NCBI GenBank assembly: GCA_963837345.1 | Contig: CAWIMX010000001.1 | Location: 1,539,823 to 1,603,822, forward strand | Source of the DNA: an uncultured Acidobacteriota bacterium | Lineage (GTDB): Bacteria > Acidobacteriota > Vicinamibacteria > Vicinamibacterales > CAVVIG01 | DNA length: 64,000 bases | Direction of reading: 5' to 3' | Part shown: positions 2,137-36,851 of the stretch, piece after piece | Layout of the letters: each line of letters opens with the position of its first letter | Position numbering within the stretch: the stretch's first letter is position 1 | Made by a program: the position numbers and the translations under genes | Notes under the pieces: generated by a model | Told to the model about the DNA's origin: nothing | Seen by the model: only the letters and a program-made list of their open reading frames with translations | Databases searched by the model: none

Positions 2137-2415
2137 ATGGCCAGGCTCACGCAGGCCGAGATCGAGCAGCGCCTCGCCCAGCTCTCGGGGTGGACGCTCG
2201 CAGGCGATGCGATCCGCAAGCAGTTCGAATTCCAGTCGTTCCCCGACGCGGTCGCCTTCGTCAACCGCCTGGTGCCGATGGCCGAGTCGGCGGATCATCA
2301 TCCCGACATCCTGATCAACTACCGCCGCGTCACGCTGACGTATTCGACCCATAGCGAAGGCGGCCTCACGGCGAAGGATTTCGCCGGCGCCGCCGCTGCC
2401 GAACGACTCGCCTGA
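2137..2415 (+). CDS. 4a-hydroxytetrahydrobiopterin (pterin-4a-carbinolamine) dehydratase
   Basis: MARLTQAEIEQRLAQLSGWTL...ADHHPDILINYRRVTLTYSTH is typical of PCD, 92 aa. ATG 2137 is preceded by GAGGAGG. The upstream part of the 193-aa track ORF is spurious. Confidence 0.85.
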   Translation: MARLTQAEIEQRLAQLSGWTLAGDAIRKQFEFQSFPDAVAFVNRLVPMAESADHHPDILINYRRVTLTYSTHSEGGLTAKDFAGAAAAERLA

Positions 2416-2424
2416 CGCACATCC

Positions 2425-2889
2425 GTGCGACTGAAGAAGACGTACGGCGCCCGCGAAGTGGCCGCGCTCACCGGGTTGAGCGCGCGACAGCTGCAGCTCT
2501 GGGACACGGGCGGCCTGGTGGCGGCCCCTGTTCCGCCGCGGCGCACGGCCGCAGGCGGCTACACCGAACGGCGGTATACGCCGATCGAGCTCTTCGAGCT
2601 CCTCGTGCTGGCCGATCTGCGTCGTCGCGGGTTCACGATGTCGCAGCTGCACGACATCGTGCGAATCCTGAAGCAGCAGTTCTCCGTGCGCCTGTTCGAA
2701 GCGACCGGCGGGGGCGGTGCCGTACAGCTCCTCACCGACGGCCGCGAGATCTACGCGCGCACCAGCCAGGGCGACATCTTCAACCTGCTGCTGGCGCCGG
2801 ATCAGCCGCTGCTGGTCGTCGGCAACGAAGGTCTGCTGAGGGAGTTGAGCGGAAAGGTTCGACGTCGCAAGCCGCGCCGGCAACCGTAG
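2425..2889 (+). CDS. MerR family transcriptional regulator
   Basis: N-terminal HTH YGAREVAALTGLSARQLQLWDTGGLV. 154 aa, GTG start. Confidence 0.75.
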   Translation: MRLKKTYGAREVAALTGLSARQLQLWDTGGLVAAPVPPRRTAAGGYTERRYTPIELFELLVLADLRRRGFTMSQLHDIVRILKQQFSVRLFEATGGGGAVQLLTDGREIYARTSQGDIFNLLLAPDQPLLVVGNEGLLRELSGKVRRRKPRRQP

Positions 2890-2906
2890 GGGGGTGCGCG
2901 TCCCCC
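2889..2906. terminator. GC hairpin between convergent genes (possible bidirectional terminator)
   Basis: GGGGGG-TGCGCGT-CCCCC lies between the MerR stop (2889) and the BMC-H stop (2911). No clear U-tract. Confidence 0.3.
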
Positions 2907-2910
2907 ATCG

Positions 2911-3207
2911 TCATCCGATCGGAAAGACCTTTTCGAGATCGTCGGCGGGTCGCGGGATCACGTGAACGCCGACCAGCTCGCCGACGCGGCGCGCGGCAGC
3001 CGCACCGGCGTCGGTCGCCGCCTTGACCGATCCCACGTCGCCGCGGACGATCGCCGTCACGAGTCCGGCATCCACCTTCTGCCAGCCCACGAACACGACG
3101 TTGGCCGTCTTGCACATCGCGTCGGCGGCCTCGATCATCCCGACCAGCCCGCGCGTCTCGACCATGCCGAGCGCGTCGCCCACCTCCCGCTTGTGCTTGT
3201 CGGCCAC
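2911..3207 (-). CDS. BMC-domain shell protein (BMC-H, PduA/EutM/CcmK-like)
   Basis: [59 protein letters not shown] is a canonical Pfam00936-type BMC sequence. I take GTG 3207 as start (98 aa). The rest of the 202-aa track ORF overlaps the upstream gene. Confidence 0.85.
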
Positions 3208-3218
3208 GTCGGCGTAGT

Positions 3219-4340
3219 CTACGCGATTTTCCCGCGAGCGGCGACGGGAATGACGTCCACGACCTCGTCTCCCTCGACCAGGTGAACCGCGTCCACCAGA
3301 TTCGACACGACGCACGAATGGTTCGGAAGGACACGGACTCGATCGCCGGGCTCCAGGCGGCGGACGCCTGCGGAACGTACCACGGCATGCTCCTCGGACA
3401 GGCGCTCGATCGTCAGCGAGTCGTCCACCGATTCGCCCTCTGTCGAGAGGACGGCGCCGAATCCCTCCGTGCGGCCAAAGCCGCGTGCCGGATCGCTCGA
3501 GAGCGTCTTGCTGCCGCAATCGAGGATCACGCGATCCGCGGCCGGCGTTGACACCACCATCGCCAGCACGGTCAGCGCGCAGTCGTCGGTGGTCGCAGCC
3601 CCCAGGCCCACCTGCGTCCGGTCGAAGTAGACATAGTTGCCCGGTCTGAGCTCGGTCGGGCCCACCACCTTCGCGCTGTAGCGCAGGGTCGGGGTGGCGC
3701 CGACGCTGATCTCCTCGATCGCCACGCCAGCCGCCTCGGCCGATCGCTTCAGTCCGTTCAGGAGCTCGGCCTCGCGTTCCGCCACTCGTCGAAGATCGTC
3801 GTCCGAGCGAGCGGCATAGCCCTGACCCGCATGGCTGAGCAGGCCCTTGAGCTGAAGGCCGGGCAGCCTGGCAACGTGGCGCACGAACGCCACCGCGTCG
3901 GCGTGTTCGGGATCGATGCCGCAGCGGTGAAAGCCGACGTCCACTTTGATCAGGACGTCCAGGACGCGGCTCGCGCGCCGCATCTCGTCGGACCAGGCGC
4001 GCGCGACGGCCGGATGGTCCACGACGATCGACATCGTCGCGCGGTCCATCAGGGCCAGAAGTCGCGAGGCGTTCGAAGGCTGGACGGGGTAGGCGATCCG
4101 GATGTCGGTGAGGGCTCCGGCGGCAAAGACCTCGGCTTCGCCGATCTTCGCGCAGCAGATCCCGCGCGCGCCTGCACGAAGCTGCCAGCCGGCGATGTCG
4201 GGTGATTTGTGCGTCTTGACGTGCGGCCTGAGCGACATGCCGGCGTGATCCGCGAGCGCCTGGATCCGCCCGATGTTCCGCTGGAGGCGTGAACGGTCGA
4301 CGAGGACGGCGGGAGTGGGGAGCGACGAGATCCGTGTCAC
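3219..4340 (-). CDS. D-TA family PLP-dependent enzyme (alanine racemase N-terminal fold; D-threonine aldolase / D-serine dehydratase-like)
   Basis: [48 protein letters not shown] carries the PLP-lysine context (HVKTHK). GTG 4340 overlaps the DUF1501 stop (GTGA). The track Met at 4514 would overlap the upstream gene. Confidence 0.75.
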
Positions 4341-5584
4341 CCCACCATCATGCCCGGAAAGCGCGACGGGCTGACCGTGTGTCCCGGGAAGATCGGGGCC
4401 GCGTCGGCCACGCCGAGGTGCCGCACCACGATCTCGGCGAACACGTCGCGGAAGTCGGTGGTGACGGCCAGATCGCGCTGGTCGTATCGCTGGTCGAGGG
4501 CCAGCCCGGGCCACCGCCCGTAGACGCGGCCGCCCTTGACGTCGCCGCCGATCACGAACATCGCGTTCCCGTGGCCGTGATCGGTGCCGCGGTTGCCGTT
4601 TTCGTTCACCGCCCGGCCGAACTCCGACATCGTCAGTACGACAGTGTCGGCCATGAGATCGCCCAGGTCGGTGACGAGGGCCGAGATGCCGCGGGAGAAA
4701 TCGTCGAGTCTCGCTGCCAGCTGTCCCTGCGCGGCGCCCTGATTGACGTGGGTGTCCCAGCCGCCGAGATCGGCAAACGCCACTTCGAGGCCGAGGTCGG
4801 CCTTGGCGAGCTGCGCAATCTGCTGCAGGGCCTGGCCGAAGGGGCTCCGCGGATACTCCGCTCCCCGTTCCGGTCGATAGCGGGAAGGGTCCGTGCGCTG
4901 CAGCATGTTCATCGCGTCGAACGCCTCGCGGCCGGCGCCGTTCAGCACGTGATCGGCGGCCGCGGCGTACTGTTGCTCGAAGGACAGGGCGACCGGGTTC
5001 GAGCGGCCGCCGCGGATGCCGAACTGATCGAGCTGGCGCACGGCCAGCGCCGGCGCGGCCCCCTGGAGCGCACGCGGCAGCTGTGACGTGAGCGCGACGG
5101 CGCGGAATGGCGTCTGCTCCTGTTCGCGGCGCGCCTGCAGGTAGCGGTTCAGCCAGCCGTCGGACGTGCTTTTCACGCCCGGCGTCGCCGTTTCCATGTA
5201 GTCCTGCGCGTCGAAGTGGCTGCGCGTGCTGTCGGGCGACCCGCAGGCGTGGACGATGGCGAGGCTGCCGGCCTTCCAGAAGGGCGCGAGCGGCGCGAGG
5301 CGGGGATTCAAGCCGAAGAAGCCGTCCAGATCCACCGCGGCGTCGGCGCCGGCGCCGGGGCGGGGAATCGCGATCGACGGCCGCGCGCGATAGTAGTCGG
5401 CGTCACCGAAGGGCACGACCATGCTCAGGCCGTCGACGGCGCCGCGCTGGAAGATCGCGATCAGGCGCTTCGCGCGACGGGTGCGCCCCTGCGCGAATGC
5501 GGTCCGCGCGAGAAACGACGGCGCGAAGCCGAGGCTGACCATGGCGATGGCGCCGTTCTTCAGGAAGATGCGTCGGGAAATCAT
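4337..5584 (-). CDS. DUF1501 domain protein (sulfatase-like fold) with Tat signal
   Basis: 415 aa. N-terminus [31 protein letters not shown] is a twin-arginine signal. GTDHGHGN motif. Classic pairing with DUF1800. Confidence 0.85.
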
Positions 5585-5587
5585 GGG

Positions 5588-7165
5588 CTACCGCCTCTGG
5601 AATTCCGGCGACCCGAGCGTCAGCGCCAGGCGCTGCTCCTCGGTGGTCGCTCTCGCAATTGTCGCGCGCGTCGCCTGGGAGACGTCGTCGGCCAGCACTT
5701 GCGTGATCACGGCGTCGCTGCGCGCCCCCGGCTGCCGGCTGCCGACGGCCGACTGGCGGCCCCCTCCGGTCAGCGCGAGCGCCACATTCATGCGCTCGAC
5801 GAGCGCGCCGGTGTTCACCCACACGTCCGCCGTGTCCTTGTAGCCCGTCGGCGGCTGGCATTGATAGAGCGGCTGCCCGAGCTGCTGTGCGGCGCGCACG
5901 AGCGGCAGCGGCCTCGCCGCGTCGGCGCCGAGCGCACGGACCGACGACACGACGAATTCGAACGGCGTCTTCACTTTGGCCCGGTACGCCTCGGGCGCGA
6001 AGAACTCGGGCGAGGTGACGATCGTCCGCATCACCTCGCGGAGGTCGCCGTGCGTGTGCTCGAAGGCGGCCGCGACGCGATCGACCAGGGCGACGGGCGG
6101 CGTATCGCTCACGAATCGGCGGCTCAGCTCGGTCGCGATGAACCGGGCGGTCGACGGATGCGACGCCAGGATGTCGAGCACCTGTTCGCCGTCGCGCTCG
6201 CCTCCGCCGGCCGCCAGGTGATGACCCAGCACGACCTTCGGCCCATCGTCATGGAGGCGCGGCTCGAAGCGGAAGCCTCCCCCCTGGCGCGGCTGATCGA
6301 TCGTCCATCCGGTGAACGCCCGGGCGACCTCGGTGACGTCCTTCTGCGTGTACCCGCCGTCCACGCCGAGCGTGTGCAACTCCATCAGCTCGCGGGCGTA
6401 GTTTTCGTTCAACCCACGCCGCGGGTTCTGGGCGTTCTGGGGCGGAGCCAGGGGCGCCAATCGACCACGCCCTCCACGACGCGCCGACGCGTCGGGGTCC
6501 ACGCTCAGCCAGTTGTCGAGATAGAAGAGCATCGCCGGGCTCTTGGCCGTGGCTCCCAGCAGGTCGCGAAACGATCCCAGCACATGAGGACGAATCGCCT
6601 CGCGCTCGTACTCGGTCAGCAGGAACCGGTCGGGGCCCTTTCGCGCATCGACGTTGAAATGGTTGAACCAGAAGTCCACCAGCACTTCCTGCAGCTGGCG
6701 CTCGCTGTAGATGGCGCGCTCCACCTTCTGCGCGGAGAGTTCCATCAGCACCTGATTCGCCTGCTGCATCGCGGGCGGCCGTTGAGACGGGTCCGGCGGC
6801 TGACCGGCCTTCTGATTCTGCTGCTGCCGGCGCCGCGCCTGCTGGAGCGGAATCGCATACTTCTGCGCGATTTCCCGCGAGCTCATCTCAATCGTGGTGA
6901 GATCGACGAGCCGCTGATCCATCGCGCCGTCCGGAATGCGCTCGGGATGGAGCTGGTCGTCGATATAGCGTTCGACGCCCAGATTGCGCACGCGCTCGAC
7001 GTCGCCAGGGCGCGGGCCGAAGGCGGTGCGATTGAGGAGATGCACGATCGCCTGGTCGTCGGTGGGAAAACCGGCCGCAGCGGGGCGCTGCGTGCTGGCG
7101 ATCGCGGCGGCCGCGATGGCTGCGGCCGCGACCAGTCCTGTCTGTATCCGCTTCGACACGCCCAT
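5588..7165 (-). CDS. DUF1800 domain protein
   Basis: 525 aa with a signal-like N-terminus. LHPERI...LVDFWFNHFNV is typical of DUF1800. 3-nt gap to DUF1501. Confidence 0.85.
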   Translation of the reverse strand: MGVSKRIQTGLVAAAAIAAAAIASTQRPAAAGFPTDDQAIVHLLNRTAFGPRPGDVERVRNLGVERYIDDQLHPERIPDGAMDQRLVDLTTIEMSSREIAQKYAIPLQQARRRQQQNQKAGQPPDPSQRPPAMQQANQVLMELSAQKVERAIYSERQLQEVLVDFWFNHFNVDARKGPDRFLLTEYEREAIRPHVLGSFRDLLGATAKSPAMLFYLDNWLSVDPDASARRGGRGRLAPLAPPQNAQNPRRGLNENYARELMELHTLGVDGGYTQKDVTEVARAFTGWTIDQPRQGGGFRFEPRLHDDGPKVVLGHHLAAGGGERDGEQVLDILASHPSTARFIATELSRRFVSDTPPVALVDRVAAAFEHTHGDLREVMRTIVTSPEFFAPEAYRAKVKTPFEFVVSSVRALGADAARPLPLVRAAQQLGQPLYQCQPPTGYKDTADVWVNTGALVERMNVALALTGGGRQSAVGSRQPGARSDAVITQVLADDVSQATRATIARATTEEQRLALTLGSPEFQRR

Positions 7166-7307
7166 GGAGCTCTCCTGCCTAACGAGCTTAGACCGGGCGG
7201 GCCGTGAAAGCGTTTAAAAGGGCGCGACGAGCTTCAGGTCGACCGCTTTCGCTTCGCCTTCTCCGAGGGTGAACAGCGTGGCCAGCTCAGATGCGGCGCC
7301 TCTTGCG

Positions 7308-8882
7308 TTACCGGATTCGCACGCGGCTCTGTTCGCGCATGAACTGCTGCACGTAGTAGGGGCCGCCGCTGCCACGGCCCGTGGAGCCGCTCGCCTTCCA
7401 GCCGCCGAACGAATTCACGCCGGGCCAGGCGCCTGTTGTCGCCCCGGCCCGGCGATTGGCGTACGTGACGCCGGCCTGGATGCGTTCGAAGAAGCGCGAG
7501 AGCTCGCTTTCGTCTTCGGAAAAGATGCCGGCCGTGAGGCCGTATTCCGTGCGATTGGCGAGCTCGATCGCGTCGTCCAGCGTGACCACGTCGGCGACAA
7601 GCGTGATCGGCACGAACAGCTCTTCGCGGAACAGCGGATGCCCGGCGGGAAGGCCGTCGATGACGGTCGGCTCCACATACCAGCCGTGCGCGAATTCGCC
7701 GTCGGTGAGCCGGCGGCCGCCTGCGAGCACGTGGCCGCCGTCCGCCCGCGCCTGGGCCACGGCGCGCTCGAACGTGCGGACGGCCGCTTCGTTGATGACC
7801 GGGCCGAGGTACACGCCGCGCTTCAGCGGATTGCCGACGGTGATCTGTTTCGTCTTCTCGACCAGACGCCGCACGAATTCGTCGCGGATGGTCGTGTCGA
7901 TATAGACGCGCGAGCATGCCGAGCACTTCTGACCCTGCGCGCCGAACGCTGACCGCATCACGCCGTCGCTCGCCTTGTCGAGATCGGCGGAGCGCATGAT
8001 GATGGCGGGATTCTTGCCGCCCATTTCGATGACGAGCGGACGCGGAACTGTGCGCGCCGCGTTCTCGCGAATCAGGTGCATGCCCACGGCCTTCGAACCC
8101 GTGAACACGATGCCGTCGACATCCGCGTTGTCGATGAGCTCCTGACCGGCCGTGCTCCCGCCGCCGGTGACGAAGTTGAAGACGCCGGCGGGGAGGCCGG
8201 CCGCCGCGGCAATCTCGTAGAAGCGGTGCGCGATCGTCGGCGTCGCCGATGCCGGCTTGAGCACGATGGTGTTGCCGGCGACCATCGCGGCGCCGGCCGG
8301 GCCGGCCGCCAGCGCCATCGGGAAGTTGAAGGGCGAGATCACCCCCCACACGCCGTACGGACGCATGACGCTGGCGTTCTCTTCACCGGGGCCGAGCGCG
8401 CCGAGGGCCACGTGGAAACCATCGTGGGTCTCGACCTGATCGCAGTAGTAGGCGATGAGATCGGCCGCTTCCTCGACGTCGCCGACGCACTCGAGACGGT
8501 TCTTGCCGGCTTCGTAGCCCATCAAGGCGGCCAGATCCCACCGATGCTCACGAATGCCGTCGGCCACCCGCCGCAGGAGCGCGACGCGCTCGCGCCAGGG
8601 CCGCGCGCTCCATGCCGGATAGGCGGCGCGGGCTGCGGCGATCGCCTGTCGCATCTCGTCGCGACCGCCTGCCTGGCACCGGCTGATCAGGATGCGGGTG
8701 TCGATCGGACTGCGCACCTCGAACTCGGTTGCCGCCCGCACGGGCTTGCCGTCGATCGCCAGCGGCACGGAGGCGCCAAAATCCTTCTTCACGCGCTCGA
8801 TGGCGGCGTCGAGCGCGCGATGGAGATCTTCCATCTGATCGCCGCTCATCGTCGCGTAGGTGATCTTGGTTTGTGTCGCCAT
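7308..8882 (-). CDS. pruA: aldehyde dehydrogenase family, L-glutamate gamma-semialdehyde (P5C) dehydrogenase-like
   Basis: ALDH motifs FTGSKAVG, EMGGKNPAIIM and FGAQGQKCSACSRVYI (catalytic Cys; GQKCSA is typical of P5CDH). ATG 8882 with GAAGGGGG upstream. Confidence 0.8.
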   Translation of the reverse strand: MATQTKITYATMSGDQMEDLHRALDAAIERVKKDFGASVPLAIDGKPVRAATEFEVRSPIDTRILISRCQAGGRDEMRQAIAAARAAYPAWSARPWRERVALLRRVADGIREHRWDLAALMGYEAGKNRLECVGDVEEAADLIAYYCDQVETHDGFHVALGALGPGEENASVMRPYGVWGVISPFNFPMALAAGPAGAAMVAGNTIVLKPASATPTIAHRFYEIAAAAGLPAGVFNFVTGGGSTAGQELIDNADVDGIVFTGSKAVGMHLIRENAARTVPRPLVIEMGGKNPAIIMRSADLDKASDGVMRSAFGAQGQKCSACSRVYIDTTIRDEFVRRLVEKTKQITVGNPLKRGVYLGPVINEAAVRTFERAVAQARADGGHVLAGGRRLTDGEFAHGWYVEPTVIDGLPAGHPLFREELFVPITLVADVVTLDDAIELANRTEYGLTAGIFSEDESELSRFFERIQAGVTYANRRAGATTGAWPGVNSFGGWKASGSTGRGSGGPYYVQQFMREQSRVRIR

Positions 8883-8957
8883 CGGTGTGCCCCCTTCGCG
8901 TGACGTTACCACGCGCCCGGCCGGCGCTGCCTCAGCCGAATCGCGCGAATCCGGACA

Positions 8958-12915: not shown

Positions 12916-13287
12916 TCAGAGAATTAGACGCCTGATCCCATCCCGAAGGACCGCCGAATTGAAGTTGATCAGCAGGCCCACGCGGTTCCGTGTAAGGCGC
13001 AGATACGTCAACACCTGCGCCTCGAACACAGGGGAGAGCATGGCTACGCTCTTAACCTCGACCAGCACCCGCCCCTCGACCAGCAGATCCACGCGATACG
13101 CGCCAAGAAGGTGTCCCTTGTAGTAAGCCGGAATGGACAGCTGTCGATCGTGTGAAATCCCTTGTTCCTGGAGCTCGATTGACAACGCCTGCTCGTACAG
13201 CGGCTCGAGAAGCCCCGGGCCGAGGCCCCGATGGACTTCAATCGCCGCCGCAATCACGCGCGAGGTCGTTGCGTTGACCGCCGTCAT
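12916..13287 (-). CDS. GxxExxY protein (PD-(D/E)XK nuclease superfamily, PDDEXK_3)
   Basis: GPGLLEPLYEQAL contains the GxxExxY motif, and VDLLVEGRVLVEVKS gives D...ExK. ATG 13287 is preferred. The ORF extension to 13320 (MNRPRGHEDAE) is encoded by a repeat copy. Confidence 0.85.
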   Translation of the reverse strand: MTAVNATTSRVIAAAIEVHRGLGPGLLEPLYEQALSIELQEQGISHDRQLSIPAYYKGHLLGAYRVDLLVEGRVLVEVKSVAMLSPVFEAQVLTYLRLTRNRVGLLINFNSAVLRDGIRRLIL

Positions 13288-13320
13288 CTCCGCGTCCTCG
13301 TGCCCTCGTGGTCTGTTCAT

Positions 13321-14699
13321 ATCCGAGCCCCGTGTCTCTGTGCCCAGTGGGTTTGTCGAGCCCGAGCCTCTGTGTCTCGGCGCCTTGATGGTTTGTCGAG
13401 CCCGAACCTCTGTGTCTCGGTGCCTCAGTGGTTTGTCGAGCCCGAGCCTCCGTGTCTCGATGCCTCAGTGGTTTGTCGGGCCCGAGCCTCTGTGTCTCGG
13501 TGCCTCAGTGGTTTGTCGAGCCCGAGCCTCCGTGTCTCGGTGCCTCAGTGGTTTGTCGAGCCCGAGCCTCTGTGTCTCGGTGCCTCAGTGGTTTGTCGAG
13601 CCCGAGGCTCCGTGTCTCGGTGCCTCAGTGGTTTGTCGGCCCGAGCCTCCGCGTCTCGGTGCCTCAGTGGTTTGTCGAGCCCGAGCCTCCGTGTCTCGGC
13701 GCCTTGATGGTTTGTCGGGCCCGAGCCTCTGTGTCTCGGCGCCTTGATGGTTTGTCGGGCCCGAGCCTCCGTGTCTCGGTGCCTCGGTGGTTTGTCGAGC
13801 CCGAGTCTCCGTGTCTCGATGCCTCAGTGGTTTGTCGAGCCCGAGTCTCCGTGTCTCGGTGCCTCGGTGGTTTGTCGAGCCCGAGCCTCTGTGTCTCGGT
13901 GCCTCAGTGGTTTGTCGAGCCCGAGCCTCCGTGTCTCGGTGCCTCAGTGGTTTGTCGAGCCCGAGCCTCCGTGTCTCGGCGCCTTGATGGTTTGTCGAGC
14001 CCGAGCCTCCGTGTCTCGGTGCCTCAGTGGTTTGTCGAGCCCGAGCCTCCGTGTCTCGGCGCCTTGATGGTTTGTCAAGCCCGAGCCTCCGTGTCTCGGT
14101 GCCTCAGTGGTTTGTCGAGCCCGAGCCTCCGTGTCTCGGTGCCTCGGTGGTTTGTCGAGCCCGAGCCTCCGTGTCTCGGCGCCTCAGTGGTTTGTCGAGC
14201 CCGAGCCTCCGTGTCTCGATGCCTCAGTGGTTTGTCGAGCCCGAGCCTCCGTGTCTCGGTGCCTTGATGGTTTGTCGAGCCCGAGCCTCTGTGTCTCGGC
14301 GCCTTGATGGTTTGTCGAGCCCGAGGCTCTGTGTCTCGGCGCCTCAGTGGTTTGTCGGCCCGAGCCTCTGTGTCTCGGTGCCTCAGTGGTTTGTCGAGCC
14401 CGAGCCTCCGTGTCTCGGCGCCTTGATGGTTTGTCGAGCCCGAGCCTCCGTGTCTCGGCGCCTTGATGGTTTGTCGAGCCCGAGCCTCCGTGTCTCGGCG
14501 CCTTGATGGTTTGTCGAGCCCGAGCCTCTGTGTCTCGGCGCCTCAGTGGTTTGTCGGGCCCGAGCCTCTGTGTCTCGGCGCCTTGATGGTTTGTCGAGCC
14601 CGAGCCTCGGTGCCTCAGTGGTTTGTCGAGCCCGAGCCTCCGTGTCTCGATGCCTCGGTGGTTTGTCGAGCCTGAGGCTCTGTGGCCTCAGTGGTTGGT
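13321..14699 (+). repeat. tandem array, about 34 copies of a 40-bp unit (GTGTCTCGGTGCCTCAGTGGTTTGTCGAGCCCGAGCCTCC)
   Basis: Visible 40-nt periodicity over about 1.38 kb. Copies differ only at a few fixed positions (cctc[c/t]gtg; cg[g/a][t/c]gcct[c/t][a/g][g/a]tgg), with occasional 39-nt units. No unique spacers. Confidence 0.95.
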
Positions 14700-17600
14700 T
14701 CAACGCCCGGGCCTTTGAGCCTCCGTGGCAAATACCCGAAGCGCCTCATCCCGAATCTCGCGTTCGACCAGCGGAAACGTTCCAAGAACGTGCTCGAATT
14801 CGGGCGCGCTCAGCCTGTACAGACCGGCCACCGCTGCCTGGAGCTGGCAGTACGCCGCCCTCTGTGGCCCGCGGGCGAGCAGCCGCGCCAGGCCGGCGAT
14901 GCGGCCGAGCGCCCGAGGCTCGGTGGCAGGTGTCGGCGCCGGCAGCGCCTGCACGACGGCCGTCGTCACGTGGGTGGTGACGCGCTGGCGCACGAAGTAG
15001 TTCACGACGAAGCTGTTCAGCAGGGCGCACAGCGCGTGCTGCCGCTGCACCGGCATCGGCGTCCTCAGGCAGAAGACGGTGTGCGTCGTCACGCACCCGG
15101 CGGGGAGCAGCGCCGCGATGAGGGTGAGGCGGTTGGTGGCGCCGGCCACGTCGCGGTAGGCAAGCCTGACGCGCTCGAACGGCCGCGCGCGGAGAAGGCG
15201 ACCTGCGGTCGACGGGCTGATGGCCTGCCGCGTTCGCTGCAGATCGACGGCGAAGGGCCCGATGTGCTTGCCTTCGACGATCGGGAGCCCTGAGCCCGAC
15301 GGCACGAAATGGCGGCGGTCGTCGGTCGCGTTCAGCTCGCGTCCGAATCGAGCGCCCCAGCCGTGCCTGCTGCCGAGCGGCGGGAACAGCGCCGCGGCCC
15401 GTTCAGCCAGCGAGACGTCCATCGCGGATCGAAGATCGGGAATGGCGAAGGTGTCTCCCGACAACCGGCCGAGCAACTCCATCGACAGCTGGACGGGAAA
15501 GTCGGGCGACCGGGAGGCGCCATCGCCGAGGCGCTCGAGCACGGCCGGATCCCGCTCGCCCAATCGGCAGGCGATCGCGTGCGTCGGCGAGCCAGCTGAG
15601 GCGGTGACGAGCATGAAGCGCACGCTTCGATGAATCGGGAAGACGCCGTCGCGGTTGTCGAAGCCTGCGATGGCGTCGATGCTGGCCCGTGCGAACAGCT
15701 TCTGGCGAAGGGCGGCGCTGCCGTGATCGATCGCGACGCCGGAGGGCAGCACCAGCCCGAGGCGTCCGCCGGGCCGCGTGAGGTCGAGGGCGCGCTCGGC
15801 GAACAACTGGTAGCGATTGGGGTGGCCGGTCGTCGTGGCCGTATAGACGCCGGACGATCGCGCGAATCGAACGAGCGGACCGCCGTCGAGCCGCGCGCGT
15901 CTGCGGTCCTCGGGCGATCCGGCGTCGCCACGGACCATGTCCCAGGGCGGGTTCCCCAGCACGGCGTCGAAGCCGGGCGCGGGGAGGCGTGTGCCGGCCG
16001 GTGAAAAGAATACCTCCGGGAATTCGATCTCCCAGTGCAGGAAACGACGTCGCGTCGCGATGGCGTCGGCGTGGCCGAGGTATGCGGCGGCGGTGCCATC
16101 GGGTAGCGCGCCCCGGGCGGCGAGCACAGCGTCGGTGAGTGCGCCAAAGGCTTCCGGCGGTACGGGCGTCTCACTGGTCGAGAACCACGCGGCGCACCAC
16201 AGATCGGCGACGCGTCGCCACCGCTCCCACACATGCTGGCGACGGTGCAGCGTGGCCAGCGTCCGCTCCTTCTCGCGCACCCGCTCGATCGTGTCGCCCG
16301 GGACATTCTCGAGCGCGAATCGGAGCGGCAGAGTCGCTTCGATGGCCGGCCTCGCCGCCGCCTCGTCGAACAGCCGGGGTGGGTCGGGCCCCCCCTGCCG
16401 GCGCTCGCGGCCGGGTCGAGGCGGCCGCCCGAGTGCCGACAGCCACGCGCCGACCAGGCTGTCGCCGGTTCGCAGGCGATGATCGAGGAACGTGAGCGGC
16501 CGATCCGCGGCGAGAGTGGTCAGCCACAGCGACAGCCTGGCCAGCTGCACCGCCATCGGGTTGATGTCCACGCCGTACAGGCAGCGCTCGGCAATGGTGC
16601 GTCGAATGGTCGCCCGCTCCGCGTCGCCGATATCGGCCGGCAGACAGCCGCCGGCGTCGACGAGCGCCCGCTCGTACTCGCGCGCCAGATAGCGGCAGGC
16701 GGCAACGAGAAACGCCCCGCTGCCCATGGCGGGATCGAGCACGCGCAAGCCGAGAATTCGCTCGGGCGCCGCGTGGCGGACGAGGGGTTCGAGCGTGCGG
16801 CGCACGATGTAGTCGGCGATGGGCTGTGGCGTGTAGAAGGTGCCGCTTGCCTTCCGGAGGCCCGAGCCGGCCTCGAGCGCGACCCGCCGCCCCTCGATCT
16901 TCGGCCGGTAGTCGAGGATGGTCTCGTACACGGCGCCAAGCTGTTCGACGCCGAGGTCGTGATATCCGATGCGTTCGCGCGCGGCGCGATTGGCCGCCGG
17001 ACGGGTGGAGAGGGCCAGAACGGTTCGCCGCGCCGCCTCGTCGTCCAGGTCGCGGCGTTCGGCCAGCGGCGTGTGCGAGGGCGCGAACAGGCGGCCGTTG
17101 AACGGCGTCACGCGGAGATCGCCGGCTCGGCAGCCCGCATGCGCGAGGCGCGACATTGCCTGAAGCGCATCCCAGAAGCCCGTGGCGGCGCGCGGACGCT
17201 CGGCCATGGCGCGCAGCGCCTCGACGCTGTAGCTGTTTCGGTAGACGGGATGCCACAGCGGCATGAGCCCCCGCGCTTCGGCGAACAGGAGGAAGAGGAG
17301 GCGATAGACGATCGTCAGCGATTGTTCGTACGCACGATCGAGTGCCGACCCGTCGACCGCGCGCCGACCGCGCACGGCGAGCGAGGTCGCCACGTCGGAG
17401 GCCGCTTGCAGTACGCCATGACGAAGCGATCGACAGACGCCCGACGCGTGGCGGTCGGACGCATCCACGAGGTCGTGGAGTGCGGTCCGCGGCGGAACGC
17501 CGCCGCCGGCGAGCATCGAGGCGCGCGTCAACCGCAGGAACGCAGCCAACGCCCGGTCGTCTTCGAACGCGGCGTCGAGGTCCCATTCGAAATGCCTTCG

Positions 17601-18014
17601 CGCGTACACGCGCGCGCCGTCCACGACTCGAAGCTGGCAGCCGTTGAACAGCACACACCACGGCGACGAGCGATCGAAGGCCTGGGCCACTGCCGATGTC
17701 CACCACGATTCGAGTGGCTCGCACCAGCCCACCACGAGCAGGGCCACTCGGTGCGTCGCCGTGGCCAGAGTCGCCGCAACGGCGCGCTCCGATTCGCCGA
17801 TGGCGCACGGCGCATCGAAGCCGAGCGCTTCGGCCAGCGGACCGGCCCCGACGTCCAGTATGGCGCGCAGGCCCGACGCGGGACCCAGCGTCTGGCATCG
17901 CTCGCGCCACGCGAGCAGCCGACGCCCGGCTTCGCGATGGCGCTCGTCGCCACCTGCCGGCGTTGTCGCCAGAAACCGTTCAGAGAGAAGGTCGCCGCTG
18001 AATCCGGGCAGCAT
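14700..18014 (-). CDS. Eco57I/PglX-like N6-adenine DNA methyltransferase, 1104 aa (type IIG / BREX / DISARM-DrmMI-like architecture)
   Basis: Motif I VLDPAMGSGAFLV, motif IV LGNPPWD. Helical N-domain LTIVYRLLFLLFAEARGL. TaqI-like C-terminal specificity region. ATG 18014 lies 4 nt after the helicase stop. The first 265 codons of the 1369-aa track ORF overlap the helicase and are rejected. Confidence 0.85.
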   Translation of the reverse strand: MLPGFSGDLLSERFLATTPAGGDERHREAGRRLLAWRERCQTLGPASGLRAILDVGAGPLAEALGFDAPCAIGESERAVAATLATATHRVALLVVGWCEPLESWWTSAVAQAFDRSSPWCVLFNGCQLRVVDGARVYARRHFEWDLDAAFEDDRALAAFLRLTRASMLAGGGVPPRTALHDLVDASDRHASGVCRSLRHGVLQAASDVATSLAVRGRRAVDGSALDRAYEQSLTIVYRLLFLLFAEARGLMPLWHPVYRNSYSVEALRAMAERPRAATGFWDALQAMSRLAHAGCRAGDLRVTPFNGRLFAPSHTPLAERRDLDDEAARRTVLALSTRPAANRAARERIGYHDLGVEQLGAVYETILDYRPKIEGRRVALEAGSGLRKASGTFYTPQPIADYIVRRTLEPLVRHAAPERILGLRVLDPAMGSGAFLVAACRYLAREYERALVDAGGCLPADIGDAERATIRRTIAERCLYGVDINPMAVQLARLSLWLTTLAADRPLTFLDHRLRTGDSLVGAWLSALGRPPRPGRERRQGGPDPPRLFDEAAARPAIEATLPLRFALENVPGDTIERVREKERTLATLHRRQHVWERWRRVADLWCAAWFSTSETPVPPEAFGALTDAVLAARGALPDGTAAAYLGHADAIATRRRFLHWEIEFPEVFFSPAGTRLPAPGFDAVLGNPPWDMVRGDAGSPEDRRRARLDGGPLVRFARSSGVYTATTTGHPNRYQLFAERALDLTRPGGRLGLVLPSGVAIDHGSAALRQKLFARASIDAIAGFDNRDGVFPIHRSVRFMLVTASAGSPTHAIACRLGERDPAVLERLGDGASRSPDFPVQLSMELLGRLSGDTFAIPDLRSAMDVSLAERAAALFPPLGSRHGWGARFGRELNATDDRRHFVPSGSGLPIVEGKHIGPFAVDLQRTRQAISPSTAGRLLRARPFERVRLAYRDVAGATNRLTLIAALLPAGCVTTHTVFCLRTPMPVQRQHALCALLNSFVVNYFVRQRVTTHVTTAVVQALPAPTPATEPRALGRIAGLARLLARGPQRAAYCQLQAAVAGLYRLSAPEFEHVLGTFPLVEREIRDEALRVFATEAQRPGR

Positions 18015-18018
18015 CGGA

Positions 18019-20448
18019 CTAGGGCAGGAGCACCAGCAGCAGCTCGAACGGCCCCGACCGCACGGACGCCATCGCCTCCAGACAGGCCAGCCGATCCGCC
18101 GCGTCGGTCTCGATTCCGCGGGCCCAGTCGCTTTCGCGCTCGCGCTCGCGCTCGGCGCGCCGCGAGAAGAGCTCGGGCTGGAAGGAGGAGCCGGCCGGCT
18201 GGGCTGCCAGCGCGATCCGACGGGTCCGGTCGATCGCGGCTCGAGTGAATGCCCGTTGCGCCTCGGCGGCCCGGGCCTGCCAATCGGCGGTCGCACGCTG
18301 GAGCAGATCCGTGACGTCGTCAGAGCGTCCCTCGAGGGCAGCCTCCAGCAATTTCGACGATCGTGGCCATGTCGCGACAGGATCCACGGCGAGCGGCACG
18401 ACCAGCGACTCCACGCGTCGGCCGGCGCCATCCTCGATCGATACCCGGAAGACGGCGAGCGCGCGGCGGCCGAGCCATTGGCGCGTGCGGCGGCGGGCGC
18501 GCGCCCAGGCGGGCGCCGCCGGTGCGGGAACGCTCCCGCCGGTTGGGTTGTGCTGAAGTCGGCGAACTGTTTCGAGCCGGGCGGCCTCAGTCGAGGCGTC
18601 GCGGGCGAGCGAAACCTGATTGACCGCGGCCTCGCCCGTGAGCGCGTCGTCCGGCGCATCCGCCCGCGCAGCCTCGGGCCGCAGCCCTGCGATGGCGACG
18701 CGCGCCAGCGTGACCTCGTCCTGTCCGTCGAGCGGATCAGCGGTGCCCAGGTCGAGCCGGGCGCGGGCGATCCGGGATCGGAGATGCGCCACCAGCCGCG
18801 CTTCTCCACTGTCGGCCGCGATCAGATGAAAGACGTGCACCGTCCGCCGCTGTCCAATCCGGTCGACCCGGCCGATGCGCTGTTCGAGGCGCACCGGATT
18901 CCACGGCAGCTCGAGGTTCACGACGATCCGGCATCGCTCCTGTAGGTTCAGCCCTTCGGCCGCAGCATCGGTGGCGAGGAGCAGGCCTTGGCGGCCGCTC
19001 GTGAACTCGGCCACGACGCTGGTGCGCTCGGCGCGCGTCAGGCCGCCGTGCAGCACCGCGGCGCGGCGCGCGAGCCGCGTCAGCACGTATTCGAGCGTGT
19101 CCCGATACTCCGTGAAGACGATCGCCGGCTCGCGGGTACGGCGAAGCAGGCGAACGAGCGCGGACAGCTTGGAGCTCTCGCCCGACGCATCGAGCGCCGC
19201 CGCCGACAGGCGCTCGAGCAGGCTCCGCTCGCGCGCGGTGTTGCCCAGATCCAACGCGCCGGGCCACGCCGGCGCGCCGTCGTCGGTCGTGATCTCGCCG
19301 TCGCGATCGGTCAACGGAAGGAACAGCTGGCCGACCGGTGGTGCGCCAGGCGCCCCTTCGGCCAGCGCTTCCAGGCGACGGCCGACCGACTGATGCAAGG
19401 CAAAGGGACTCGACAGCGCTCTTTTGTGGAGCACGGCCAGGCCGAGCCATCGCTCCCGCAGATCGCCGCGGTGCGCCCGGCGGACGGCCCGGCCGAACGC
19501 GTCGAGCAGCGACAGCATGCGTCGTTCGGCCGCGCCCGTGGCGACGGGAAGCTGATGAATGCGGCGGCGGATGCCCAGCGGCACGTCGTGCCGCGTCCGT
19601 CGAAACACCAGCAGTGGATCGCCAGTCGATCCCACACCGCACAGCTCGCGAAACTGCTGGCGATCACCGCTGTGGGGCGTGGCCGACAGCAGCAGGACGT
19701 AGGGCGCCCGGCCCGCCAGCCTCGTTACCGCGCGCCGGCGATCGGTATCGCCGGCGACGGCGTGCGCTTCATCTACGATCACCACGTCCCATCGGCTCAG
19801 CGCGACCAGCGGAAGAACGTGAGCCTGCTTCACGTAGTCGATCGACGCGATCGCGATTGGCACGGTGGTCCATGGGTTGGCGGAGCGCGCGAGGCTGGCC
19901 GACCGCCGTCGCAGCGCGGCGCCATCCAGAACGACGGCGTCCAGCTGGAATCGCGCCGCGAGCTCTCCGGCCCACTGATCACGCAAACCCGCCGGGGCGA
20001 GAATCAGCACGCGGGCGGCCGCGCCGCGAGCCATCAGCTCCACCGTGACCAGGGCCGCCTGAATCGTCTTCCCCAGACCCACACCATCGGCGAGCAGGAC
20101 GCGGCATCCGAGCCCGCGAGCCACCGCCAGAGCAGGTTCGAGCTGGTGTGGCCGAAGCTCGATCCGTGCGCGATGTCCTGCCTTGAGCGAGCCTGGCGGC
20201 GCGCTTTCAACCAGCCACTGCCGGCACGCCCGAGCCCAGACCCGAGAGCGCGCATGTCTCAGGCCTGTCCGGCGCCCAACGGACTCGACGATGTCGAACG
20301 GTGTGAGCACCCGCTGTTGCACGCCCAGATTGGTGGCGCCCACGCCCACGAGCGTGAGCTCCGAACACGCTGCATGCGCGCGACGGTCGACGATGCGCCA
20401 GCGCTGCCGGCGGACGCGCACCAGATCCCCGGGGTGTCGAATCTGCAT
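18019..20448 (-). CDS. SNF2/RapA-like superfamily-2 helicase, 809 aa
   Basis: Motif I LLADGVGLGKTIQA, motif II VVIVDEAHAV, motif III LLLSATPHSG, motif VI LEQRIGRVDRIGQ. N-terminal GDLVRVRRQRWRIVD resembles a RapA-type Tudor-like domain. About 250-aa uncharacterised C-terminal tail. Confidence 0.85.
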   Translation of the reverse strand: MQIRHPGDLVRVRRQRWRIVDRRAHAACSELTLVGVGATNLGVQQRVLTPFDIVESVGRRTGLRHARSRVWARACRQWLVESAPPGSLKAGHRARIELRPHQLEPALAVARGLGCRVLLADGVGLGKTIQAALVTVELMARGAAARVLILAPAGLRDQWAGELAARFQLDAVVLDGAALRRRSASLARSANPWTTVPIAIASIDYVKQAHVLPLVALSRWDVVIVDEAHAVAGDTDRRRAVTRLAGRAPYVLLLSATPHSGDRQQFRELCGVGSTGDPLLVFRRTRHDVPLGIRRRIHQLPVATGAAERRMLSLLDAFGRAVRRAHRGDLRERWLGLAVLHKRALSSPFALHQSVGRRLEALAEGAPGAPPVGQLFLPLTDRDGEITTDDGAPAWPGALDLGNTARERSLLERLSAAALDASGESSKLSALVRLLRRTREPAIVFTEYRDTLEYVLTRLARRAAVLHGGLTRAERTSVVAEFTSGRQGLLLATDAAAEGLNLQERCRIVVNLELPWNPVRLEQRIGRVDRIGQRRTVHVFHLIAADSGEARLVAHLRSRIARARLDLGTADPLDGQDEVTLARVAIAGLRPEAARADAPDDALTGEAAVNQVSLARDASTEAARLETVRRLQHNPTGGSVPAPAAPAWARARRRTRQWLGRRALAVFRVSIEDGAGRRVESLVVPLAVDPVATWPRSSKLLEAALEGRSDDVTDLLQRATADWQARAAEAQRAFTRAAIDRTRRIALAAQPAGSSFQPELFSRRAERERERESDWARGIETDAADRLACLEAMASVRSGPFELLLVLLP

Positions 20449-25747: not shown

Positions 25748-25936
25748 ATGGAATTCATCAATCGGTTGCGGACGCTGATGCGCGAGGAGAGCGGGCAGGA
25801 CCTGCTCGAGTACGCGCTGCTCGTCGCTCTGATCGCGATCGTCGCGGTCGGCGCGGTCGGGTTGGCCGGCACGTCGGTCAACAACATCTTCACCTCGATC
25901 GGCAACACGCTCAGCGGTCTCGTCCCGGCCGCCTAG
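25748..25936 (+). CDS. flp: Flp family type IVb pilin
   Basis: 62 aa. EESGQDLLEYALLVALIAIVAV is the Flp motif (G/xxxxEY processing site). Confidence 0.9.
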   Translation: MEFINRLRTLMREESGQDLLEYALLVALIAIVAVGAVGLAGTSVNNIFTSIGNTLSGLVPAA

Positions 25937-26053
25937 TTCGAGGGATTGCGCCCGATTGTGGTCATGGCCGCGTCCGCCGTCCCCTCGGATGGCGGGCGCG
26001 GCGCTTCAACCGGACGGACTGACAGAGATGACGTGGGCATGCGGGGGGTTGAC

Positions 26054-26227
26054 ATGAGCATCGTGGCCTTGGCCGTCCGGCGGCTCGTCGCCCGTGAAGA
26101 CGGCCAGGATCTTCTGGAGTACGGCGTTCTCATGGTCCTGATTGCCATCGTCGCCATCGTCAGCGTGACGTACGTCGGCAACACGATTCACACGGTGCTC
26201 TGGGACTACGTCGTTGCGAGTTTCTAG
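26054..26227 (+). CDS. flp: Flp family type IVb pilin (second paralog)
   Basis: MSIVALAVRRLVAREDGQDLLEYGVLMVLIAIVAIV, 57 aa. ATG 26054 after GCGGGGGG. Confidence 0.85.
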   Translation: MSIVALAVRRLVAREDGQDLLEYGVLMVLIAIVAIVSVTYVGNTIHTVLWDYVVASF

Positions 26228-26723
26228 CGCCATCGAGCTGGCGGCGGTGACGGGCGGTGGAGGCACCGGGGCCGTCATCGATTTGTACACGCGCCGCGTG
26301 CCGAATCTGCTGACGCTCGGCCTGGCCGGAGCCGGCCTGGCCTTCGCCGCGCTGCGGATCAGCACCATCGGCCTGGGCGGCGCGGTTGCGGGATTTGGAC
26401 TCGGATTCGTGCTGATGCTGCCGGGACATCTGCTGGGCGCGACCGGCGCCGGCGACGTCAAGCTGCTCGCCGCCGTCGGCGCGTGGCTCGGTCCGGCGCG
26501 AACGGGTCAGGCGTTCTTCTACACCGCCATCGCGGGCGGCGTGCTGGCGGTGGTCGTCGCAATTCGGCGGCGGCGGCTGCGCGAAACGATGGAGCGGACG
26601 GCCGCGCTCGTCCGGTCGGGCGGAGGGAACGTGACCGAGATCGAGGCGCCCACCTCCGACAATCGCTTCGCATACGCACCGGCGATTGCCGTCGGCGCGT
26701 TCATCGCCGCGCTCGGGGTGTGA
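26214..26723 (+). CDS. cpaA: A24 family prepilin peptidase CpaA/TadV
   Basis: VIDLYTRRVPN...GAGDVKLLAAVGAWLG carries the two catalytic Asp contexts. TTG start is uncertain. Confidence 0.85.
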   Translation: MRVSSAIELAAVTGGGGTGAVIDLYTRRVPNLLTLGLAGAGLAFAALRISTIGLGGAVAGFGLGFVLMLPGHLLGATGAGDVKLLAAVGAWLGPARTGQAFFYTAIAGGVLAVVVAIRRRRLRETMERTAALVRSGGGNVTEIEAPTSDNRFAYAPAIAVGAFIAALGV

Positions 26724-26788
26724 CGGTGGCGACCGAGTTGCGACTGGGGACTGACTGCCGACTGCCGACTTGCGACTGAGGGATTGAT

Positions 26789-27649
26789 ATGGCTCGCATC
26801 CGCATCATGCTCGTGCTTGCGCTGGCGCTCACCGCGGGCGGCGTGTTCGCCTACGGCACCTACGCCTACGTGCAGCAGAAAGGTTCGGCGGTCCAGACCG
26901 TGTCGATTCCGACCCGCCCGGTCGTTGTCGCCGCGACTGACCTCGACGTGGGCGCCGAACTGTCTCGCGACAACATCCGCATGATCGACTGGCCGGCGAA
27001 CGCCATGCCGGCCAACGCGATCGGCAGCGCCGACGAGGTGATCGGCCGCGGGTTGATCATGCCCGTCGTGCAGAACGAACCGATTCTGCCGATGAAGCTC
27101 GCCTCGCCCGAGGAGGGCAGCGGGCTGCCGCCGATCATTCCGCCCGGGCTCCGCGCGATGTCGGTGCGGGTGAACGAGGTGATCGGCGTGGCCGGCTATG
27201 TGCTCCCCGGCACGCGCGTCGACGTCGTCACGACGCTCAGCCCGACGCAGAATGCGTCGGATACGACGTCGAAGGTGATCCTGACCAACGTGCAGGTGCT
27301 GGCCGCAGGCACCCGCTTCGAGCAGGACACCGAAAAGGACAAACCGATGCCGGTGAGCGTGGTCACGCTGCTCGTCGATCCCGATCAGGCCGAGCGCCTG
27401 ACGCTGGCGAGCACCGAGGGCAAGATCCAGCTCGCGCTTCGCAATCCCATGGACAAGAACACGCCTGAGACCCGCGGCATCAAGCCCGCGGCCCTGATGG
27501 GGACGCCGTCCACGACGCCGCGGGCGCTGCCGCGGCGGGGACAGGCGGCGCCGCCGGTGGCCGAAGTGCGTCCACCGGAGAAGAAGCCACTCACCGTTGA
27601 AATGATCCGCGGCGACAAGCGTGAAGAGAGCGTCGTCCCACAGGATTGA
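26789..27649 (+). CDS. cpaB: Flp pilus assembly protein CpaB/RcpC
   Basis: 286 aa. N-terminal TM, SAF-like VVVAATDLDVGAELSRDNI, RcpC domain. Confidence 0.9.
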   Translation: MARIRIMLVLALALTAGGVFAYGTYAYVQQKGSAVQTVSIPTRPVVVAATDLDVGAELSRDNIRMIDWPANAMPANAIGSADEVIGRGLIMPVVQNEPILPMKLASPEEGSGLPPIIPPGLRAMSVRVNEVIGVAGYVLPGTRVDVVTTLSPTQNASDTTSKVILTNVQVLAAGTRFEQDTEKDKPMPVSVVTLLVDPDQAERLTLASTEGKIQLALRNPMDKNTPETRGIKPAALMGTPSTTPRALPRRGQAAPPVAEVRPPEKKPLTVEMIRGDKREESVVPQD

Positions 27650-27653
27650 GGCC

Positions 27654-29443: not shown

Positions 29444-29450
29444 GATCACC

Positions 29451-30626: not shown

Positions 30627-30632
30627 CCGACC

Positions 30633-32953: not shown

Positions 32954-32956
32954 ATC

Positions 32957-36500: not shown

Positions 36501-36851
36501 CTAGCGGGGCTTGACGTAGGTGGCCGTCACGACCGTGCTCATGCCGCCACGCACGGAAAAGTCGCCGACGACCGTCAGGCGCCGCGGCGCGAGCGCCGAC
36601 GCCAGGTCGTCGAGGATCTGATTGGTGGCCGCTTCGTAGAAGATGCCGCGGTTTCTGAACCCGATCAGGTAATACTTCAGCGATTTGAGCTCGACGCAAA
36701 GGGCTTCCGGAGTGTAGGTGATCCGGATTTCGCCGAAATCGGGCAGCCCGGTCTTCGGGCAGACCGACGTGAACTCCGGGCAGCGAATCGCGATCTCGTA
36801 GTCGCGCTCGGGACGGGGGTTGGGGAAGGTCTCGATCGTCCCGCTTGACAT
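36501..36851 (-). CDS. queF: NADPH-dependent 7-cyano-7-deazaguanine (preQ0) reductase QueF, type I
   Basis: MSSGTIETFPNPRPERDYEIAIRCPEFTSVCPKTGLPDFGEIRITYTP...SLKYYL is the canonical QueF motif with catalytic Cys. Confidence 0.9.
   Translation of the reverse strand: MSSGTIETFPNPRPERDYEIAIRCPEFTSVCPKTGLPDFGEIRITYTPEALCVELKSLKYYLIGFRNRGIFYEAATNQILDDLASALAPRRLTVVGDFSVRGGMSTVVTATYVKPR

Follow-up and report, generated by a model that had tools for sequence, protein, structure and literature searches.

Among bacterial microcompartments (BMCs), the ACI type is exclusive to Acidobacteria, mainly of subdivisions 4 and 6 (Sutter et al. 2021, Nat Commun 12:3809), and one satellite occasionally associated with it consists of a hexamer-type shell protein (BMC-H) encoded 'by itself' (Sutter et al. 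2021, Supplementary Data 2). Satellite loci are defined as loci encoding PF00936 or PF03319, but never both (Axen et al. 2014, PMC4207490), and in the published catalogue satellites are merged with whatever main locus their genome contains (Sutter et al. 2021). The present study concerns a solitary BMC-H gene at positions 2911-3207 on the minus strand of a 64-kb stretch of DNA (~69% G+C), hereafter the window, from contig CAWIMX010000001.1 of an uncultured Vicinamibacterales bacterium of the Acidobacteriota. The gene closes a tightly packed block (2911-7165) in which it is preceded by genes for a DUF1800 protein, a DUF1501 protein, and a pyridoxal phosphate (PLP) enzyme of the D-threonine aldolase/D-3-hydroxyaspartate dehydratase family (D-TA).

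With a probability of roughly 0.7, this gene belongs as a satellite to an ACI-type metabolosome; it would encode a paralogue of the shell protein and be separately transcribed, and its product would most likely be a minor facet tile with an acidic pore. According to the proposed mechanism, the 98-aa gene would encode a functional BMC-H hexamer and would have been born by duplication of a main-locus BMC-H gene within Vicinamibacterales, and an ACI main locus comprising a class II aldolase with an encapsulation peptide, BMC-H, a BMC-P (EutN/CcmL-type vertex protein) triplet, and a 2-hydroxyacid dehydrogenase is predicted elsewhere in the genome. Since the residues K33, N36, and R86 are retained, the protein is most likely built into the facets of the shell as a minor component; its pore constriction would be lined by six aspartates, and part of the shell would change its charge selectivity or permeability. 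D-TA, DUF1501, and DUF1800 would be ordinary neighbours with no compartment role. The original prediction had offered two options for the lone gene, a satellite for a distant BMC locus or a non-compartment role; the former is supported by the ACI main loci of relatives, by a metagenome-assembled genome (MAG), SMAG_U3631, and by the catalogue, whereas the latter is not favoured.

Two classes of related loci

The BMC-H gene (98 aa, GTG start) was the one PF00936 gene of the window (E 4.7e-28; EutM-like, 128 bits), and no PF03319 gene was present in the 64 kb, an arrangement that corresponds to the definition of a satellite locus. A tblastn search of the whole 64 kb with EutN, CcmL, PduN, and BMC-H queries detected neither a BMC-P gene nor a second BMC-H gene, and the EutN, CcmL, and PduN queries did detect BMC-P triplets in related loci. 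Likewise, a Pfam scan of 28 window proteins returned no BMC core family, and the earlier claim that the window contains no BMC-P was thus borne out. The ACI main-locus set, namely the PF00596 aldolase with a C-terminal encapsulation peptide, the 2-hydroxyacid dehydrogenase, and the BMC-P triplet, was absent from the window. These genes are found in the main loci of relatives, and the window can thus be at most the satellite part of such a system.

A protein search revealed thousands of BMC-H proteins at >= ~90% identity in soil metagenomes, one of which was named Vicinamibacterales, and the closest relatives of the window protein were encoded in Vicinamibacterales or Acidobacteriota MAGs, in line with the acidobacterial hosts of the ACI type. 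Vicinamibacteria are here taken to be equivalent to Acidobacteria subdivision 6. In a species scan with one genome per species, the loci of the best 80 of 437 relatives were examined and compared by means of the window proteins and BMC-P queries, and two classes were distinguished. The orthologue class consisted of 16 loci (L001-L016; 81-95% identity) from Vicinamibacterales or unclassified Acidobacteriota MAGs, with BMC-H as the sole shell gene within 10 kb in 16/16 loci. The paralogue class consisted of ~55 loci (66-76% identity) in which BMC-H is directly followed by three BMC-P genes. Its gene order, taken from Pfam scans and existing annotations, was class II aldolase (PF00596), BMC-H, three BMC-P genes, and 2-hydroxyacid dehydrogenase (2-Hacid_dh), and this order was confirmed among the relatives in L041 and L086-L096. 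Judged by its gene content, the paralogue class is the published ACI-type main locus. Moreover, L080 and L081 were recognised as the published aldehyde dehydrogenase (AldDh) satellite, in which BMC-H stands beside an AldDh of 558-589 aa, and L022 has the PRPF variant mentioned in the catalogue.

In a neighbour-joining tree, the solitary clade was monophyletic (bootstrap 288/500; 87 columns) and included L017, a more distant member located on the complete chromosome OZ252293. The nearest relatives of the clade were the main-locus BMC-H proteins of Vicinamibacterales, which fits a duplication inside this order. One of the orthologous loci, L007 (CAYNUO010000015.1), is titled 'uncultured Bifidobacteriaceae bacterium' yet carries a Vicinamibacterales-type solitary BMC-H (89-91% identity) with genes for MerR and pterin-4a-carbinolamine dehydratase (PCD) downstream; its taxon label is probably wrong.

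Both kinds of locus were found together in the MAG SMAG_U3631, a relative in which the satellite is thus accompanied by a main locus in the same genome. Its solitary locus (L014) contains DUF1800, DUF1501, D-TA, and a solitary BMC-H with 88-89% identity to that of the window, and its main locus (L041) contains the aldolase, BMC-H, and BMC-P genes, after which the contig ends. The two loci are similar in G+C (66.2% in L014 and 66.5% in L041), and L041 takes second place among 76 loci when these are compared with L014 by tetranucleotide correlation, which makes a binning error unlikely for this MAG.

Fold, pore, and selection of the shell protein

The PF00936 match covers residues 12-87 of the window protein and profile positions 1-75 of 75, corresponding to a single non-permuted domain. 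The protein aligned collinearly and without gaps to the structures of PduA (3ngk, E 1e-35), EutM, and the Haliangium BMC-H (HO-5815), with ~71% identity to PduA in the core region. K33, N36, and R86, the residues assigned to tiling, are retained and are equivalent to K26, N29, and R79 of PduA, in which tiling is governed by Lys-26 and Arg-79 (PMC4139245).

The solitary clade differs from all main-locus paralogues at two sites, the pore loop and the edge motif. The pore loop K44-V45-D46-A47-G48, read from the translation of codons 3064-3078 (minus strand) and equivalent to K37-I-G-S-G41 of PduA, was identified as K-V-D-A-G in 16/16 solitary-clade sequences, one from the window and 15 from relatives. 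No main-locus paralogue has this loop, and the pore hairpin of these proteins is K-I-G-A/S-G. Compared with PduA, Asp and Ala replace Gly (G39) and Ser (S40), respectively, and this D-A pair was present in 103/120 best metagenome homologues. The edge motif of the window protein, P85-R86-P87-A88 (2944-2955, minus strand), follows the pattern PRP[A/S/V/G] of the solitary clade, in contrast to the PRPH of all main-locus paralogues, and PRPA was present in 94/120 best metagenome homologues.

In PduA, the pore constriction is formed by the GSG hairpin, anions are favoured, and the S40A substitution raises metabolite permeation 3-4 fold (PMC10514305); by analogy, the replacement of G39 by Asp and of S40 by Ala should alter the charge and permeability of the pore. 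A further-reaching proposal is that the K-V-D-A-G/PRPA clade represents a separately transcribed 'acidic-pore' tile that would reverse the anion preference and admit a cationic or amine substrate, or else that the protein works without BMC-P in some genomes. This proposal is tentative, and we regard it as possible but doubtful; if true, the acidic-pore tile would provide a handle on the substrate of the ACI compartment.

Outside Vicinamibacterales, a solitary BMC-H with the pore K-I-D-A-G and the edge PQPH was encountered in a Pyrinomonadaceae MAG (L018:1156-1416), so that the Asp-pore variant also occurs in subdivision-4 Acidobacteria, through either shared descent or convergence. In addition, two metagenome proteins of 161-162 aa (P0001 and P0121) scored 244 and 290 bits to BMC-H queries, compared with ~190 bits for full-length proteins of the identical class, and may contain a BMC domain that is repeated in tandem or partly duplicated, or may be chimeras of the assembly.

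Comparison of the window gene with its orthologues gave a dN/dS of 0.04-0.13 at a dS of 0.6-1.25, that is, with synonymous sites near saturation, and the gene is under strong purifying selection. Its reading frame was intact in 17/17 loci, and among relatives its conservation (82-94%) was higher than that of D-TA (56-68%) and MerR (47-77%). A decaying, functionless leftover of a duplicated shell gene would likewise be isolated from other BMC genes, and the loss of one interface histidine and a Cys32 unique to the window copy could be taken in the same sense: residue 32 (3112-3114, minus strand) is Cys in the window (D-A-M-C-K) vs Val or Leu in 15/15 related solitary-clade sequences. Nevertheless, decay is refuted by the signal of purifying selection, and the intact frames, the invariant pore motif, and the better conservation of BMC-H than of its D-TA and MerR neighbours stand against it as well, leaving this explanation with a negligible probability.

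Candidate leaderless promoter

Alignment of the upstream DNA uncovered a TANNNT box, mostly TAGAAT or TAGACT, that ends 6-10 nt before the BMC-H start in 11/16 solitary-clade loci and is present regardless of the upstream gene. In the window, this candidate leaderless promoter is a TAGACT -10-like hexamer at 3216-3221 on the minus strand, where 8 nt separate it from the GTG of BMC-H and where its TAG is the stop codon of D-TA. In high-GC bacteria, a TANNNT located ~12 nt before the start codon is known to mark leaderless genes (PMC3160421). No Shine-Dalgarno-like motif was found before the BMC-H start. The TANNNT arrangement was detected before 6/60 window genes (BMC-H and 5 others), compared with 0.5% of random positions, and the genome of the window appears to use leaderless transcripts fairly often. 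BMC-H thus probably has a promoter of its own at the TAGACT box, which would yield a leaderless mRNA, possibly beside read-through. With such a box and mRNA, the cell could dose the tile independently, as cyanobacteria do with CcmK3/K4. Downstream, neither a hairpin between the convergent stops of BMC-H and MerR (z = 0.18) nor a T-tract terminator on the minus strand was found.

These observations bear on the co-transcription of BMC-H with D-TA, which the original prediction had taken as given. The packing itself stands, whereas co-transcription had been assumed, and the -10-like box overlaps the D-TA stop. The oddity once seen in a cytoplasmic shell protein co-transcribed with genes for periplasmic proteins dissolves, given a probable leaderless promoter of its own and a D-TA without an encapsulation peptide.

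Similar boxes occur elsewhere in the window. TAGAAT was identified 6-7 nt before the starts at 36851 (queF-like), 46481 (E2 acyltransferase), and 59737 (squalene/phytoene-synthase-like), and the group with TAGAAT or TACAAT 6-9 nt before the start also includes an Ldh-like gene at 50808.

Weighing of the satellite reading

Several results weigh against a satellite paralogue of an ACI metabolosome. Among the best 80 of 437 relatives, a main locus was seen in 1/13 genomes with a solitary orthologue, so coexistence is thinly documented, and for the genome of the window itself a main locus is predicted from relatives. In the metagenome data, none of the contigs with matches to the main-locus BMC-H consensus was shared with the contigs carrying solitary orthologues; P0018 (solitary, ERZ25039520) and P0209 (main locus, ERZ25039547) came from different samples; and in the 10 places listed for P0131 no sample was shared between the two classes. 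The bootstrap of the solitary clade is modest (58%, 87 columns), and the clade is at most a candidate member of the 'H_marine' class of the catalogue. As for the protein, the His of the PRPH edge motif is lost in the window BMC-H, which has PRPA, and some orthologues alter P85 or R86 (ARPA, PHPA), which could weaken tiling. As for transcription, no promoter was detected in 2300-7400 when a strict sigma-70 -35/-10 pattern was required, and it is from the motif itself that the leaderless promoter is proposed.

Part of this evidence would also suit a solitary BMC-H that acts outside any polyhedral compartment, forming sheets, tubes, or a scaffold alone, maybe in genomes lacking BMC-P. Such a role would agree with the 17 loci that have no other shell gene within 10 kb, with the derived pore and the lost histidine of PRPH, with the 12/13 genomes in which a solitary BMC-H was present and no main locus was seen, and with the occurrence of a clade member in yet another context on the complete chromosome OZ252293 (L017). 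However, the search patterns were common to most BMC-H and the best 80 of 437 relatives were examined, so that the missing main loci are uninformative and carry no weight in this respect, and the one informative MAG, SMAG_U3631, has both loci. In addition, the clade is limited to an ACI-bearing order and lies nearest to ACI BMC-H, the tiling residues are retained, and lone BMC-H genes of this kind were grouped in the catalogue with the ACI main loci of the genomes that carry them. A non-compartment role is thus considered unlikely, and a satellite of an ACI-type metabolosome is preferred.

Upstream and downstream neighbours

Gene calls in the window were made with a codon log-odds caller, and the four genes and their spacing proved to be as originally described. 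The block begins with the DUF1800 gene (5588-7165, minus strand; 525 aa; PF08811, E 7.9e-147), followed after a gap of 3 nt by its DUF1501 partner (4337-5584, minus strand; 415 aa; PF07394, E 6.6e-42), in which an N-terminal twin-arginine motif was read straight from the sequence. The TGA stop of DUF1501 overlaps the GTG start of D-TA as GTGA, and the D-TA gene (3219-4340, minus strand; 373 aa) ends in a TAG stop (3221-3219) that is followed by the 11-nt gap and the GTG of the 98-aa BMC-H.

The D-TA protein matched PF01168 (Ala_racemase_N) and PF14031 (D-ser_dehydrat) over residues 14-355, and its best structure was 3wqc (E 2.6e-50; query 5-352 vs chain 16-372). It aligned end to end with the structures of D-threo-3-hydroxyaspartate dehydratase and D-threonine aldolase, which are non-BMC enzymes, and was shorter at both ends. 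The check for an encapsulation helix suggested in the original prediction was run, and both the Pfam span (14-355 of 373 aa) and the structure alignment revealed no terminal extension for an amphipathic helix at either terminus of D-TA, which is probably not BMC cargo. DUF1501, for its part, is predicted to be exported by the twin-arginine translocation (Tat) pathway and cannot be a luminal partner. Operons with mixed exported and cytoplasmic products are commonplace.

Among relatives, the composition of the upstream side was variable. The four genes were contiguous in the window, L003/4, L005, L006, L009, L010, L011, and L014; L013 retained only D-TA followed by BMC-H; an unassigned gene of ~220 aa stands between D-TA and BMC-H in L015 and L016; and genes for PadR and a MacB/FtsX permease occupy this place in L012. 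D-TA was upstream of BMC-H in 12/17 related loci, and the trio of D-TA, DUF1501, and DUF1800 was missing in 5/17 (L001/2, L007, L008, L017, and L085). In these five, the upstream genes encode two amine oxidases (L001/2), PEP-utilising, MFS, and DinB proteins (L007), CarboxypepD_reg proteins (L008), and FG-GAP/NHL proteins (L085), or lie on the opposite strand, a RidA-like protein among them (L017). The gap between DUF1501 and D-TA was 9-155 nt in relatives, so that the GTGA coupling is restricted to the window. As to whether the synteny is conserved, the four-gene order is thus kept in many Vicinamibacterales species and broken in others by unrelated upstream genes.

It could be supposed that BMC-H and the three genes before it (D-TA, DUF1501, and DUF1800) constitute a single functional operon, such as a minimal compartment or a scaffold that serves an aldehyde-releasing D-amino-acid aldolase. 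D-threonine aldolases release acetaldehyde, which counts in favour of such a module, as do the tight packing in the window (the GTGA overlap and the gaps of 3 and 11 nt), the frequent position of D-TA upstream of BMC-H (12/17 loci), and the aldehyde-forming amine oxidases that occupy the position of D-TA in L001. In contrast, neither end of D-TA is extended so as to accommodate an encapsulation peptide, the Tat-exported DUF1501 could not be inside a cytoplasmic shell, and the window contains no BMC-P. Moreover, the trio is absent in 5/17 loci and D-TA is separated from BMC-H by insertions in 3 more; the neighbours that replace it (MacB permease, CarboxypepD_reg, DinB, and FG-GAP) have no common chemistry; the DUF1501-D-TA gap is 9-155 nt in relatives; and BMC-H has a -10-like box of its own. 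A four-gene module is largely refuted by the variable synteny and is very improbable. Considering the absence of the trio in 5/17 loci, the lack of an encapsulation extension, the separate -10-like box, and the unrelated substitutes, the link of D-TA, DUF1501, and DUF1800 to BMC-H is, as far as gene order and sequence features indicate, a matter of synteny within the lineage, bordering on a variable region, and not a functional unit of four genes. A shared 'amino-acid/amine to aldehyde' theme, which would connect D-TA, DAO, the L001 amine oxidases, and the enzyme of the 1-pyrroline-5-carboxylate dehydrogenase (P5CDH) type described below, was also considered and rejected because of the other upstream neighbours (MacB permease, CarboxypepD_reg, DinB/MFS, and FG-GAP proteins).

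The downstream side is the steadier neighbour of the solitary BMC-H. In the window, a plus-strand block at 592-2889, identified by Pfam as DAO, a hypothetical gene, PCD, and MerR, converges on BMC-H. Convergent MerR and/or PCD genes were present downstream of BMC-H in 14/16 loci (L001-L016) and in L085, and DAO and hypothetical genes were annotated next to MerR/PCD in L001-L004, L085, and the window.

DUF1800, DUF1501, and D-TA occurred together in at least 10 Vicinamibacterales species (L003-L006 and L009-L016). This recurring trio of two exported, function-unassigned proteins and a cytoplasmic D-amino-acid PLP enzyme may merit a study of its own.

Other genes of the window

Directly upstream of the four-gene block, an aldehyde dehydrogenase of the P5CDH type was identified at 7308-8912 on the minus strand (534 aa; PF00171; PRK03137, 429 bits; 3qan, E 1.5e-90); it is of interest here as context only. 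The earlier claim that the window holds no aldehyde dehydrogenase was therefore wrong, since a PF00171 enzyme is present, although this enzyme is not of the BMC type. Its alignment to 3qan (query 28-526 vs chain residues 17-508) leaves no extension for an encapsulation peptide, and its identity to the BMC-linked AldDh of relatives (L022, L080, and others) is no more than 21-29%. By these sequence comparisons, the window enzyme is not a BMC core AldDh.

The other window genes, recognised from their translations alone, include those for a Tad pilus, pyruvate dehydrogenase E2/E3, hopanoid, and housekeeping functions. The Tad/Flp pilus cluster (25748-33868, plus strand; likewise known from translations only) comprises Flp pilins, a prepilin peptidase, and CpaB/C/E/F and TadB/C-like genes. 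A minus-strand region at 12916-20124 harbors a PD-(D/E)XK nuclease-family gene (12916-13287), a 1104-aa Eco57I/MmeI-like N6-adenine methylase (14700-18014), and a 701-aa SNF2-family helicase (18019-20124), which together resemble a restriction or defence pair.

Significance and comparison with described systems

The 2021 catalogue already lists a lone BMC-H satellite for the ACI type, and the definition of satellite loci dates from 2014; the locus is otherwise an ordinary case of a catalogued arrangement. The additions made here are modest, namely the fixed Asp/Ala pore, the lost histidine of PRPH, and a candidate promoter of the leaderless type, and these details may help to probe the substrate of the ACI compartment. 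ACI compartments are common in soil Acidobacteria, and a conserved satellite hexamer with six predicted pore aspartates would be a concrete clue to the traffic across their shells. The BMC-H protein could also serve as a simple target for shell-engineering or permeability work. For annotation, the locus illustrates that a shell gene packed behind genes for periplasmic proteins need not share their function.

Among the described systems, the lone BMC-H satellite of the ACI type is matched in its host, an acidobacterium of subdivision 6, and in the main-locus architecture found in relatives of the window; the catalogue is silent on the K-V-D-A-G loop, PRPA, the MerR/PCD neighbourhood, and the -10 box. 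The CcmK3/CcmK4 satellite of the beta-carboxysome is similar in that the genes for paralogues of the shell hexamer lie at a distance from the main locus, and these paralogues are thought to be separately expressed and to tune permeability (Sutter et al. 2021). However, it belongs to a carboxysome and not to a metabolosome, it consists of two genes instead of one, and its function is experimentally supported, whereas the Vicinamibacterales gene is known from sequence. PduA, the major hexamer of the 1,2-propanediol BMC of Salmonella and Citrobacter, has the same non-permuted fold and the same beta-hairpin pore, and its K26, N29, and R79 are conserved in the window protein, in which G39, S40, and H81 of PduA are replaced by Asp, Ala, and Ala, respectively. 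Finally, PduA is encoded within a locus of ~20 genes, whereas the BMC-H of the window is encoded alone.

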